This document shows, piece after piece, positions 2,583 to 30,409 of a stretch of DNA of 64,000 nt (position 1 is its first letter; every line of letters starts with the position of its first letter). The stretch lies in IMG/VR virus record IMGVR_UViG_3300000228_000002, positions 32,001 through 96,000 of that record. The stretch is one strand, 5' to 3'. The stretch comes from a virus. The notes beneath the pieces are model-generated. The model was given only the letters and a program-made list of their open reading frames with translations, was not told where the DNA came from and ran no database searches. A program made the position numbers and the translations under genes.

Positions 2583-5500
2583 TTAAACAAAACTACCGCC
2601 ATCAATAATATTTGAGTCACCCTGGCCCTCATCAACTAGATCGAACACGTCTCCAACGGTGGAGATCAAGTCATCTAGAGACTTAGTTCCGTTACCAAAA
2701 TTTCTTCTATCATATTGATTTGAGTAACCGAGGTAGTATCTTGTACTACGGGCCAACTCGTTAGCATAACCAAAATATCCATACGAATTTGTAAAGAATA
2801 TTTGGTTCACGTTAATGTAGAAATCACTAGAGTTAGAGTTATTAGCCATTGGAGATGGAATTTGAACTCTGATAGTGTATTTACCATAGTCTGGAAATTC
2901 AACCTCGATACGTTTACGAGCCGGTACTGCAGCATACATATCAACGATACCGCCAGCGTTACCACCACCAATGATGTCATTTCTGATTATACCACCAGCA
3001 AAGACTGCTCCAGGGAAGTTCTCTTCTTTAACAATTCGGAACGATAAGTCGTTATTGAATTTTGCCTGTACTAATGCATACCCAGAATCATCTGTGGCAG
3101 TGTATTCGAAGGCAAGAGTACGACCGTAGAAAGTCCACTCAAAGTAGGAACCTTCAGCATTTGATCTGTTGTACCTTCCGTAGAGTTTAGTCCAGTCAAT
3201 ACTTGAAGACCAAGGAAGTCCTAGACCATCAATAAATCTTACGAGTGATGTGTAAGCATCGAAGCCCACAGAGCCAAGTGGCAAGTTAGCACCGGGAAGA
3301 TTGCCTGTATTCGGATTGTTAAGGGAAACACGGTAAGCTGCCAAATATTTGATTTGACTAATATCAAGACCAGCTGGTTTATTGACTGCCTCTGGTTCTT
3401 TGAAAATGAACCCCACAATATTCATGTTTTGTGCATTGTAGATTTCCACTTCATATGCTTGGAATCTACCATTAGCAAACAATTGAATTCTTGTGTAGCC
3501 TTCAATGCCTGTTGATTTAGAGATTGCAGGAGAGCCATTTATAGTGTAACTGAATGCAATGTTTGATGAGTTAGCTACAATGATGTCCATTGAAGAACAC
3601 ACGGCACATATCTTGAGTCTCGAAGTTGGGTTAGGGAACACCAGAGCTCTCTCATAACCTTCCACGTTCAGTTCTGTGAAAGATATCTCTTTAGAAATGA
3701 ATTTTGTCGATCCATCCTCAAGGATTGAAACCCTGTCAACCACGATTGGTGGAAGTTGTAGGAATTCACCGAATGTAGCCAAACCGCAGAATTCGGCAAT
3801 AATGCGTCTAGCTTCCACTTCTTTATCATAGGATTCTGAAATTGTAGAACAGATGTGAATTAGTGCACCCGAACCAGCCATGTTGAAGTTTGAATCAAAA
3901 GTTACAACAGGGCCAACGATGTTGGTAATTATTTTAGTTTCCTCGTTAGTGGCAGTGACAACTTTGACTATATCGCCAATTCGGAAGAAATTAGCTAGTT
4001 TAACCGTTCCTGTACCAACCGTAATTTGGTTACTTCCTACGAAAACACTACCCACTGGGGTTAAGCTGTTTCCATCGAAATCAGTCATAGGACTGAAATG
4101 GCTCTGAATTTGGAGCTCTCTATTGTAAAGGATTGATGTCACTGCTCCACGACGGAGAGTACCAACTTCATTCAAAGGAATTACTTCCACTTGATCTTGG
4201 TAAACAGCATCACCCTGAACAAAAGCTCTTCCTGGAAGAAGATTTGCTTGGTCAAATTCCCTACGAATCAAATCAAACCCGTAGAACACGAATTCTGGGG
4301 TTGCATCTGGGATGATAATTTCCACCGTGTGGGTTACACCGTCTTGGAGATTTGATACGATCGGATAGTTCTTAGTCTTGATGTCGGATAGAGTATCGAA
4401 AGACACTGCCAATCCACCATAGCTCAAATCGAAGTTTGGATATGTCACCCCATCAACGATTACTCCAATAGAGGGAGAGCTTGCGTTGGTATCGGAGATA
4501 AGTTCTAGATCAGTGAAGTGTCCAGTGATGGTGTATCTAGCACTATTTACAGAGAACACCTGTGTTTTTGGTCCACCATTAGGTCCAGCTAGTGGATTAG
4601 TGACTGTTCTAGTCTGAATGTTTCCGTAGGCTCTCAGTCTATTCTCTTTATGGATTACAGACTTCAGAGGCTCTTGAATTTCGAATGCTAGTTGACCAGT
4701 TACAGGATGATACTCATTCTCAACTGAAATCATTTTGGAAGCCACAATCCTCTCACGGTGCTGAGCAAGCTGCATTGTAGAAAGATTGATCCTACGAGGA
4801 TTGTCATCTACTTTAACAGACCCGTGTAGAACCTTGCTAATTGTGGTATTGATATTGATAGGAACTTGTGATTTTCTGTTTCTGATTGTAACTGTAGTAG
4901 GAGTTAACCCTACAATTACAAATTCATTATCACCACCATCAACGAAGACGTTTCCACCCACAACAGAACCCAAGTTGGGGGAACCGACATAAGTCACTAC
5001 ACCTGTAATGTTGTTATATGTGAACGTGATCCCAGTTGAATTTTCGAATGTGTAGTTGATTAATCCTACGTTGTTCTCGTATAGCCCTGTATATTCAGGG
5101 ATAGAGTTCATTTTGTCGAAGTCACTTACTACCATGTCAGTAGTAGTGTTGGAGTTAGCATATTGCTTAATATCTCCGACTTCTTCGTAGAGCTCAATGT
5201 TGGAAGCTTTCTCTGGTAGAACAGAATCGTAAGTTATGCCTGATACTTCTTCAAACTTCTTGATCACGTCACGGTTGGTCTGAGCAACTTTCGGTTGGTT
5301 ATCAAATAGAAGATCAATTTTGTAACTACCAAGTGTATTTCTTATTCCGTGAACTAAACGGTATGCCAGATCAGGAACTACGTTGAATTTCAGGTATAGA
5401 GGGCCAGCAATGTAGAAACCGTACTGGTCAATGTCAACTAAAGGTTCTGAACCTGGATCCGAAATCAATTGAGTAAGGCCTGCATCTTTATATATAGCAA

Positions 5501-15210: not shown

Positions 15211-15233
15211 AAGGGTAGTGAAAGCTACCCCTT
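15211..15233. terminator. Hairpin between convergent genes, likely a bidirectional terminator
   Basis: AAGGGTAG-TGAAAG-CTACCCCTT. Confidence 0.6.
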
Positions 15234-15498
15234 AAAGTTGTGCAAGTTGTGCTGCTCTGTCGGCTCGAATCTTATCCCAATACTTATCACTTATAATTCT
15301 ATCATTGGCCTCACCAAATGATGTCCAACTTCCACCTACACGCCAACTTGTTTTGTAGATTGAGCCACATCTGATAGCACTAGTCTTCTCGATCTCTGAT
15401 TTCTCCACACGTGATAGGCACTTATCATAGTAACTTGATGGTGTCTCAATCTCAACCACTAATTCTTCTTTAGCTTTCTTTGTAAATGGCCAAAACAT
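15232..15498 (-). CDS. Hypothetical protein
   Basis: GAGGT RBS before ATG 15498 (MFWPFTKK...). The longer start in the ORF track runs through the putative RNA. Confidence 0.65.
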   Translation of the reverse strand: MFWPFTKKAKEELVVEIETPSSYYDKCLSRVEKSEIEKTSAIRCGSIYKTSWRVGGSWTSFGEANDRIISDKYWDKIRADRAAQLAQL

Positions 15499-15520
15499 AT
15501 CTACCTCAGTAATAAGGAAA

Positions 15521-15701
15521 TGGGAGTAGGGCCAATAGAGGAACCAACATTTGAACAGGGCCTCTACTGAGAAACACCCGACAAGTGACAAGGGACAAAT
15601 CGGAAAATACCTCGACATTGCAACAAAAAATGCGTGAGGTTACACTTTCCAACCTGTTATTCATCCACTAGGGATGAAAAGTTCCTTCGATCCTACTCCC
15701 A
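15521..15701 (-). ncRNA. Putative structured RNA (~180 nt) directly 3' of the 188-aa gene
   Basis: Closing stem TGGGAGTAGG/CCTACTCCCA with nested AGGAAC/GTTCCT, TTCATCC/GGATGAA, AACAGG/CCTGTT, CCTC/GAGG and CCGA/TCGG stems, plus periodic TGT motifs. Confidence 0.6.
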
Positions 15702-15706
15702 CCCAG

Positions 15707-16273
15707 TTACAACAGACGTTTAGTCTGAAGTAATTTCGTTTTCACTGCATCTAATTTGATTTTGTTGGTAAGGTTCTTCTCGGCAATTTTGTCTTCGATA
15801 GTCTCAATAAGTTTTCTCTTCCCATGAATCTCATCTTCCATCACATCCATGAATTTCTGGTCAAAGACGTTAACTGTGATGTTCGATTTCGTCCCATATA
15901 CACTAGGACTTTTCATGACATCCACAGCCATTTGGAGTTCATCTGCTAGTTCTTTATCGGTTGGAGCACCACCAGTGATGGAGCCATATTCACTGATTTC
16001 TTTTTCGATGAATACTTTCTCATTAAGAAGTGAGTTGATACCTGATGTTTCGTTTTTGGCTTCTATTTGACGACGGATGTCGTATCGAATTTCGATAAGT
16101 TTGACTCTATCGATTAATTCTTTAGCTTTTGCTTGACCAGCATCTGCAAGAACCTTTTTGGCTTCGTCCAGTGTGTCATTAGCCCGAATTTTGACAGTAG
16201 TATCGAATCCTTTATCCAAATGCTTTTGAATATTGGCTTCAAGTTTCCGTGCTTTCTTAAGACTCATTTCCAT
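15707..16273 (-). CDS. Coiled-coil protein, DIP1984/septicolysin-like pattern
   Basis: MSLKKARKLEANIQ...LIEIRYDIRRQIEAKNETSGINSLL...IEDKIAEKNLTNKI, recognised by pattern only; strong GGAGG RBS. Confidence 0.5.
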   Translation of the reverse strand: MEMSLKKARKLEANIQKHLDKGFDTTVKIRANDTLDEAKKVLADAGQAKAKELIDRVKLIEIRYDIRRQIEAKNETSGINSLLNEKVFIEKEISEYGSITGGAPTDKELADELQMAVDVMKSPSVYGTKSNITVNVFDQKFMDVMEDEIHGKRKLIETIEDKIAEKNLTNKIKLDAVKTKLLQTKRLL

Positions 16274-16314
16274 GCTGGCCTCCCTACTTTTGATTAAGTG
16301 AAGTCTTTTATGGA

Positions 16315-30332: not shown

Positions 30333-30409
30333 TGGTGCTCGGAGCACGACTCGAACGTGCGGCCTCTTCCTTATCAGGGAAGTGCTCTAACCAACTGAGC
30401 TACACCCCC
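30333..30409 (-). tRNA. tRNA-Ile(GAT)-like gene with an unpaired acceptor stem
   Basis: Canonical D arm, anticodon arm (CTTCC-CTGATAA-GGAAG), T arm (GCACG-TTCGAGT-CGTGC) and ACCA end, but 5' GGGGGTG does not pair with 3' TCCGAGC. Confidence 0.75.

Follow-up and report, generated by a model that had tools for sequence, protein, structure and literature searches.

What is the long structured element that directly follows the gene for a protein of 188 amino acids (aa) in a viral metagenome record, and do the gene and the element belong together? The stretch analyzed here, referred to as the window, comprises 64,000 nucleotides (nt), bases 32001-96000 of the 122-kb record IMGVR_UViG_3300000228_000002; since a record of this size is rated only 49% complete, its source is a large phage. 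An earlier reading of this DNA from its letters alone, hereafter the sequence-only reading, had proposed that the element is a closed RNA displaying UGU motifs at 7-nt intervals and that an oligomeric ring of the protein might bind them. We found that the gene and the RNA are conserved as a linked pair, and that the RNA has a significant fold, a 7-nt period and a strand bias. We put the probability that the 188-aa gene constitutes, with the RNA that follows it, a dedicated ribonucleoprotein module of large phages at roughly one half.

In the window, the RNA is built of a closing stem in three segments (P1), a hairpin (P2), a three-part hairpin (P3) and a P4 domain, and begins 2 nt past the stop codon of the 188-aa gene (15707-15709, minus strand). 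The parts of the pair are as follows.

15707-16273, minus strand: partner protein gene, 188 aa, product predicted to be all-helical (open reading frame (ORF), stop codon included)
16279-16284, minus strand: ribosome-binding site GGGAGG, 5 nt upstream of the start codon (ATG) of the 188-aa gene (read from the sequence)
15518-15704, minus strand: the structured RNA in full, 187 nt, bounded by the two strands of the closing stem (folds; boundary from relatives' contigs)
15680-15703, minus strand: 5' strand of P1, the long closing stem (fold; comparison with contig L002)
15660-15678, minus strand: P2 hairpin, UUCA NNN, loop, NNN UGAA (fold; also in L002 and L004)
15595-15657, minus strand: P3 long hairpin, with an outer stem, an internal loop UGUAA and P3b (ACCUC/GAGGU), its apex ending in UUGUUGCAAUGUC (fold)
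15572-15599, minus strand: heptad array of four 7-nt units, UUUGUCC CUUGUCA CUUGUCG GGUGUUU (sequence, Tandem Repeats Finder)
15548-15587, minus strand: P4 domain, a local hairpin overlapping the last heptads (fold)
15536-15557, minus strand: conserved 3' motif UGUUCAAAUGUUGGUUCCUCUA, which runs into the 3' strand of P1 and is near-identical in L002 (sequence comparison)
15519-15545, minus strand: 3' strand of P1, then a U-rich run (fold; comparison with L002)

The minimum-energy fold of the region 15500-15710 (minus strand, 211 nt) reached -76 kcal/mol, with a z-score (z) of -4.82 and none of 200 shuffles as good, and the trimmed 187-nt element gave a fold z of -7.0 (60 shuffles). The anatomy described in the sequence-only reading was confirmed on inspection: the halves of its closing stem, TGGGAGTAGG and CCTACTCCCA, lie at 15521-15530 and 15692-15701, respectively; the distance of 5 nt from the stop codon is correct for that stem and becomes 2 nt if G-U pairs extend it; the predicted fold holds more than five nested helices, in line with the claim of at least five; and the plus-strand ACA triplets stand at 15574, 15581, 15588 and 15595. 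The closing stem alone does not exceed chance, an uninterrupted 13-pair helix (G-U allowed) having appeared in 2 of 40 shuffles in a permissive search, and a duplexfold prediction of the 5' part against the 3' part, which did not discriminate the closing stem, is not counted as support. The significance of the structure comes from the whole fold, from its recurrence at homologous loci and from compensatory changes.

Recurrence was assessed at 18 distinct loci encoding homologues of the 188-aa protein, namely the window, metagenome contigs L002 and L003, ten viral contigs (two duplicates removed) and the genomes of Vibrio phage 2.275.O, PA5oct, CcrColossus, CcrPW and Kabachok; the set leaves out the closest homologues, P0002-P0005 (60-80% identity), and, for the RNA subtype of the window, includes only L002, with L003 and L004 as looser representatives. 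At 17 of these loci there is a closed element of 172-245 nt, in each case on the strand of the gene and 2-52 nt after its stop codon, with protein identities to the window homologue of 24-61%; the exception is the Pseudomonas phage PA5oct. Thus, the proposal that the structured RNA is tied to the upstream gene, which had been made from a single locus, is borne out at 17 of the 18 loci. The sequence of the closing stem varies between loci, and the neighbors are otherwise not conserved: a convergent gene follows at L002, a true terminator and another gene at L004, and a tRNA gene at L007, where it begins 25 nt after the element. Furthermore, a covariance model of the RNA (R2, see below) matched exactly once per record, at the gene, in all five whole viral records, two of which are at least 90% complete.

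The sense-strand fold is strong in 7 of the 17 elements (z of -5.1 to -7.0; -7.0 in the window, -6.3 in L002, -6.7 in L003 and -5.1 to -6.3 in the Caulobacter and Brevundimonas phages), moderate in 6 and weak in 4. Two structural variations were observed. The Caulobacter and Brevundimonas phages have an additional GC-rich hairpin, lacking a U tract, between the stop codon and the element (L029 3095-3139, L031 3107-3158 and L030 3098-3143); it may serve for processing or pausing. At three other loci (L016 2602-2774, L012 2608-2788 and L014 2594-2773), an internal segment such as GGGAUUG or GGGAC can compete with the 5' strand of the closing stem for pairing to its 3' strand, which may reflect an alternative fold or a pseudoknot.

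Compensatory changes are present. The helices of the window element and of L002, the protein of which is 61% identical, were paired by hand: of 32 pairs, 24 are the same, one has changed on one side, 7 are compensatory and none is broken. Changes on both sides affect 3 of the 9 pairs of P1a and 1 of the 6 pairs of P1c, again with none broken, as well as 2 of the 5 pairs of P3b; in P2, one pair has changed on both sides in L002 and two in L004, a Vibrio phage. In an alignment of another subgroup (A11), 91.9% of the cells are paired, compared to 63.4% with shuffled partners and 35-44% with slid partners, and double-sided changes affect 18 of 23 pairs, in an alignment that was fitted to the structure it tests and holds two false rows. 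The false rows of A11 and of alignment A13 are a minus-strand match in L008 inside a plus-strand ORF and a match in L028 outside any element.

Pairwise distances between the RNAs are 0.5-0.8. Three covariance models (R1-R3), grown from a one-subgroup seed that was widened twice, reach L003, L005, L008, L009, L011, L013, L029 and L031, and weakly L004 (E 0.41), and thus extend to most of the other subgroups; none of the three recognizes the window element, L002, L007 or L030. Thus, the subgroups are linked not by a significant RNA alignment but by having a homologous protein, the same position, a closed architecture and heptads in common. RNAalifold, applied to one set of five sequences aligned with MAFFT, returned no pairs; MAFFT is unsuited to these RNAs and shifted the alignment of the window and L002 in both P1 and P2.

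The heptad period is shared across the family. In the window, four UUG/GUG units are spaced at exactly 7 nt, and Tandem Repeats Finder reports a period of 7 with 2.7 copies (score 31) at 15580-15598. Across the 17 elements, UUG recurs at a lag of 7 nt 41 times, compared to 3.6 times expected from dinucleotide shuffles (z 19.5), and at a lag of 14 nt 21 times, compared to 3.4 (z 9.7), with UGU and UG behaving in the same way; CcrColossus and CcrPW, which are closely related, are both counted in these sums. Accordingly, the 7-nt UGU period noticed in the sequence-only reading is a family trait. The longest runs comprise 7 units in L013, 6 in CcrColossus and CcrPW, 5 in Kabachok and 4 in the window, and runs of at least three UG at 7-nt spacing occur in 11 of the 17 elements, the remaining ones having pairs. 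Arrays of three TTGY units are found solely at the element in CcrColossus (4 overlapping matches; control 0), and the one match in Vibrio phage 2.275.O is at the element as well (control 1). One other such array is present in the genome of the window phage, outside the window, at 103512-103529; it lies in an N/Q-rich stretch of a 309-aa ORF, antisense to it, and was taken as a chance occurrence within a coding region.

Inverted repeats combined with short periodic ones are also typical of DNA-binding sites, so that the element might act as DNA, for instance as an origin, a packaging site, a protein-binding repeat array or a cruciform, with no RNA involved, and the antisense strand, too, folds better than its shuffles (z of -4.6 in the window). 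However, the sense strand folds more stably than the antisense strand in 14 of the 17 elements, and G-U pairs are more common in the sense strand, likewise in 14 of 17 (12 versus 4 in the window). The sense-strand stability together with the G-U bias thus indicates an RNA read in the direction of the gene. In addition, the orientation relative to the gene is constant in all 17 elements, and a 7-nt period is out of step with the helical repeat of DNA. We consider a function at the DNA level very improbable.

Given the position of the element, the RNA would be made as a 3' extension of the mRNA of the protein, because the gap of 2-52 nt leaves little room for a promoter. The same position is what one would expect if the element were purely a cis-acting part of this mRNA, a 3' or intercistronic structure that blocks 3'-exonucleases, ends transcription or serves as an operator for its own message, with no free particle being formed: the element is always co-directional with the gene and close to its stop codon, a U-rich run follows the 3' strand of P1 at many loci (e.g. 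L002, L003, L008, L009 and L012), and in the window no separate promoter-like site was seen between the gene and the element. However, the element is not simply the terminator, since a separate canonical one lies downstream of it at L004, as does a terminator-like hairpin with a U-rich tail at L014, and in the window, transcription must pass through the element into an 88-aa ORF before it meets the sole terminator-like site. Moreover, a stabilizer could do without some 200 nt of conserved multi-helix structure and without motifs spaced by heptads. A purely cis-acting role therefore appears rather unlikely. The two features downstream of the element are the following.

15232-15498, minus strand: 88-aa ORF, next after the RNA element (ORF)
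15211-15232, minus strand: terminator-like hairpin after the 88-aa ORF (sequence scan; the only such site there)

The 88-aa ORF sits between the RNA element and a convergent 261-aa gene. Contigs of relatives lack this ORF and keep the RNA element; the ORF is therefore extra in the window phage and no partner of the RNA, and represents either a recent insertion in this phage or a deletion in its relatives. In three contigs of relatives, the match to the window ends at 15513-15516 and is followed by the end of the convergent 261-aa gene, and this divergence sets the 3' boundary of the element. Contigs of relatives from four public runs carry 1-2-nt indels within the element, which is therefore non-coding. 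The GC content of the window is about 41% and even along its length.

The RNA could also be a stand-alone phage non-coding RNA (ncRNA) that acts elsewhere, for example on a host RNA-binding protein or nuclease that recognizes U/G-rich motifs and for which it would be a sponge or decoy, its linkage to the gene being due to shared inheritance or timing. Indeed, the 3' half is single-stranded and rich in motifs, as in sponge RNAs, 4 of the 13 loci scanned (L004, L007, L008 and L009) have tRNA genes no more than 2-3 kb away from the pair, as would fit a stable-RNA transcription unit, and in PA5oct the protein is uncoupled from the RNA. Nevertheless, the pair remains adjacent at 17 of the 18 loci, at identities down to 24%, while all other neighbors change, and there is one RNA copy per genome, at the partner gene only. 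We find such independence of the protein unlikely. At L008, the pair is directly followed (2946-4576) by genes for a small ClpS-like protein and a ClpA-like AAA+ protein, both named by eye from their translations.

The protein itself belongs to a sizeable viral family. Six close homologues are 43-80% identical to it, and a profile search recovered 1296 cluster representatives at E<=1e-3 and 440 at E<=1e-10. Nearly all of the 150 family matches listed are 182-209 aa long, and the family shares the N-terminus M-E-L-x-L-[RK]-K-A-R-K-L-E. Other searches returned fewer or no relatives: blastn of the window region found no match in phages, the window protein alone and alignment A1 found no relative among viral contigs, profile A5 found no homologue among genome contigs (0 of 7 candidate stretches), alignment A9 retrieved nothing beyond contigs that were part of the set, and tblastn against phages retrieved nothing with P0010 and P0060 and the PA5oct group only with P0098. 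No Pfam family was detected in any of 143 members at E<=0.01, save scattered chance coiled-coil matches; there was no relevant NCBIfam match in 8 of 8 members, no PHROG function for the window protein and no match to profiles A3 and A4 in a sequence search of the PDB.

The AlphaFold2 model of the 188-aa protein (mean predicted local distance difference test score (pLDDT) 90.8) consists of six helices, with only two 3-residue strands, one N-terminal and one C-terminal. Its structural matches, with template modeling (TM) scores of up to 0.87, are uncharacterized proteins of large phages, including Erwinia phage pEa_SNUABM_47, CcrColossus and Vibrio phage Vp_R1; two giant viruses gave weaker matches, and in the ESM Atlas the protein falls among viral 'hypothetical protein' clusters. 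The sequence-only reading had suggested a likeness to DIP1984, for which structure, and not sequence, offers some support. PDB 3kdq, a conserved protein of Corynebacterium diphtheriae whose function is uncharacterized and whose fold we take to be 'DIP1984-like', is the top structural match in the PDB and the only one spanning the full protein, at a VIA-align Z of 9.7 that is under the caution line of the tool for helical proteins (root-mean-square deviation 7.3, 140 of 152 residues aligned). Foldseek gives the same match an E of 0.22, a probability of 0.93 and a TM of 0.44-0.52. Overall the match is weak, and 3kdq is set apart from the phage protein by that deviation, by an identity of 13% and by the lack of a sequence-profile match.

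When two copies were folded together, a symmetric homodimer with a very large interface was predicted, with a score of 0.71, compared to 0.00 for the best of three controls, a contact agreement of at least 95% between runs and a partner pLDDT of at least 90. Of proteins with solved structures, 20 of 30 that are pairs of one chain and 1 of 23 that are single chains reached the mark for a homodimer; these counts apply only approximately to a prediction from our own alignment. The TRAP-like ring of the sequence-only reading is not supported by this two-copy prediction, with which higher assemblies remain compatible. The predicted interface comprises residues 19-141. The invariant residues L5, R9-L11 and N167 are missing from the listed interface residues, and two conserved parts of the protein lie outside the interface, namely the basic N-terminal helix (LRKARKLE) and the C-terminal segment K166-N167...K171. 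The GenBank record of the PA5oct homologue, gp304, carries the note 'ESI-MS/MS', which, in the PA5oct paper, denotes proteins found in virions; judging from this flag, the protein family may be virion-associated.

Does the pair belong to a known RNA-protein system? A search of the whole window against Rfam 15 at gathering scores, which covers pRNA, 6S, YrlA/Y RNA, tmRNA and riboswitches among other families, yielded only two tRNAs, both away from the element; in E-value mode, the region 15400-15800 gave two chance-level matches (E 1.8 and 4.9), neither within the helices of the element; and 13 related loci gave tRNAs only. In the literature searched, we found no description of this gene-RNA pair. 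As for tRNAs in the window, an Rfam tRNA model at 30344-30402 (minus strand) covers only model positions 8-63 of 71, and ARAGORN reports a 68-nt tRNA-Ile at 30333-30400.

In Bacillus subtilis, HutP binds the hut mRNA at UAG motifs occurring every 7 nt and TRAP binds the trp leader at GAG/UAG motifs every 5-6 nt; both proteins are alpha/beta rings, of 6 and 11 subunits, respectively, each subunit offering one motif site, which act on 5' leaders to control termination. The phage pair would resemble them in the reading of a trinucleotide motif, repeated at short fixed intervals in single-stranded RNA, by an oligomeric protein, provided that the protein binds the RNA. It differs in its helical protein, predicted to be a dimer, in its UUG motif and in an RNA that lies 3' of the gene within a closed scaffold of about 190 nt. 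A 5' leader target of the HutP/TRAP type was discarded, the element being 3' of the gene at 17 of 17 loci.

CsrA/RsmE dimers are bound many times by sponge RNAs of the CsrB/RsmZ type, through GGA motifs in hairpin loops. Here, too, there is a protein predicted to be dimeric and one structured RNA displaying many copies of a short motif, whereas the CsrA/CsrB system has a GGA motif, another protein fold and RNAs that are not known to lie behind the protein gene or to show a fixed 7-nt period. The pRNA of phi29 (Rfam RF00044) is a phage RNA of about 170 nt in which a closing helix formed by the two ends encloses a multi-helix core, and it binds the portal. In contrast to the element described here, pRNA is not known to have heptad repeats, and the element has neither an Rfam match nor a visible link to packaging genes. 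In type III toxin-antitoxin systems (ToxIN-like), the gene for an endoribonuclease toxin is preceded by direct repeats of about 30-40 nt arranged in tandem. At our locus, the only repeat is the 7-nt unit (2.7 copies in Tandem Repeats Finder), the RNA is downstream of the gene and the protein is all-helical, and a system of this type was rejected.

The nearest described system is VIPR, which is reported to consist of a phage Vipr protein of RAMP/RRM fold together with a vrRNA composed of 9-16 copies of a 5-nt YNNGG repeat and a structured part (bioRxiv 10.64898/2026.04.26.720920); the protein is a RAMP with an RRM core, a G-loop and a thumb, and DNA targeting was shown (10.64898/2026.04.26.720920). 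A companion preprint (10.64898/2026.04.26.720927 or 10.64898/2026.10.15.759431) reports that the protomers are arrayed along the repeats. Both systems are minimal phage loci with a small protein gene and an adjoining ncRNA of about 100-200 nt, and both RNAs combine short-period repeats, in which fixed letters alternate with freer ones, with a conserved structured part. However, the protein described here is all-helical, with no RRM sheet in the AlphaFold2 model, and its RNA has (U)UUG(U)NN repeats with a 7-nt period in 2-7 copies, is closed by a long terminal stem and occurs once per genome. No vap-like accessory gene stands out among the neighbors examined here, and none of the 17 elements has even three YNNGG in tandem, whereas VIPR needs at least 4. 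Membership in VIPR was thus ruled out, since the two agree neither in protein fold nor in period nor in motif.

A further preprint, a survey of periodic intergenic arrays (10.64898/2026.10.21.760802), reports periods of 5, 18 and 60-79 nt, and its clusters of period 7, in Patescibacteriota, and of period 8, in Chloroflexota, consist of palindromic 'beads on a string' with no partner protein (10.64898/2026.10.21.760802). A text search of the accessible part of 10.64898/2026.10.21.760802 found no mention of the present family, and its period-7/period-8 arrays, being palindromic and devoid of a partner protein as described there, were rejected as members.

How, then, might a dedicated ribonucleoprotein work? 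Covariation and fold statistics show an RNA that is closed by its long terminal stem together with P2 and P3, the hairpins on its 5' side, and that presents its 3' half, rich in (U)UUG(U) at 7-nt spacing. The protein, as predicted, would be a symmetric dimer with the basic N-terminal helix and the C-terminal strand-helix at its two far ends, off the interface. These ends could read the heptad-spaced UUG motifs, and several dimers might align on one RNA to form a defined ribonucleoprotein. In its mode of action, such a particle would be like the periodic-motif binders, that is, HutP, TRAP, CsrA on CsrB and Vipr on vrRNA, while probably being a member of none of these systems. Control of its own mRNA, sequestering or guiding of something, or entry into the virion are possible roles.

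Several observations weigh against a dedicated ribonucleoprotein. PA5oct encodes the protein homologue (gp304, L028 2501-3064) with no adjacent element; its gene is followed by a 71-nt promoter-like gap and a glutaredoxin-like gene. There is no array of three TTGY units anywhere in the 287-kb PA5oct genome, and no heptads are present in the three of its four published ncRNAs that were examined (all except ncRNA004). Thus, the protein can exist without a recognizable RNA in cis. The fold is weak (z of -0.4 to -1.7) in L005, L011, L015 and L016, and covariance models of other subgroups score the window element at best at 4.3-5.2 bits, on the right strand. Finally, the family is not basic overall, with a median isoelectric point of 6.5 and values above 7 in 56 of 143 members, and a dimer alone leaves the 7-nt period unexplained.

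A bolder version of the ribonucleoprotein module, which we regard as distinctly unlikely, is that of a second, independently evolved 'repeat-code' phage ribonucleoprotein analogous to VIPR, in which the all-helical protein would grip (U)UUG and the 3-4 freer letters of each heptad would jointly specify a nucleic-acid target, e.g. a competing mobile element or a host transcript. A hint in this direction comes from the CcrColossus and CcrPW RNAs, where 5 of 6 substitutions fall at non-UUG positions of the 6-unit heptad array, which makes up about a fifth of the element. Conversely, L016 and L012 differ by 2 changes in 38 nt of the motif-rich 3' stretch, which is among the best conserved parts, and this argues against a repeat code.

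If the protein binds the RNA, the pair would be a ribonucleoprotein common to large phages of Caulobacter, Brevundimonas and Vibrio and to many uncultured phages of soil and water, and one that is absent from Rfam, Pfam, NCBIfam, PHROGs and the literature searched. Cultured carriers of the pair are CcrColossus, CcrPW, Vibrio phage 2.275.O and Brevundimonas phage Kabachok. The RNA may provide a first functional handle on an unannotated protein family of at least 1296 sequence clusters. VIPR represents a new class of programmable nucleic-acid recognition by phage protein-RNA pairs with short periodic repeats; a second class with another fold and another period, if true, would widen this field and add a new RNA-binding fold.

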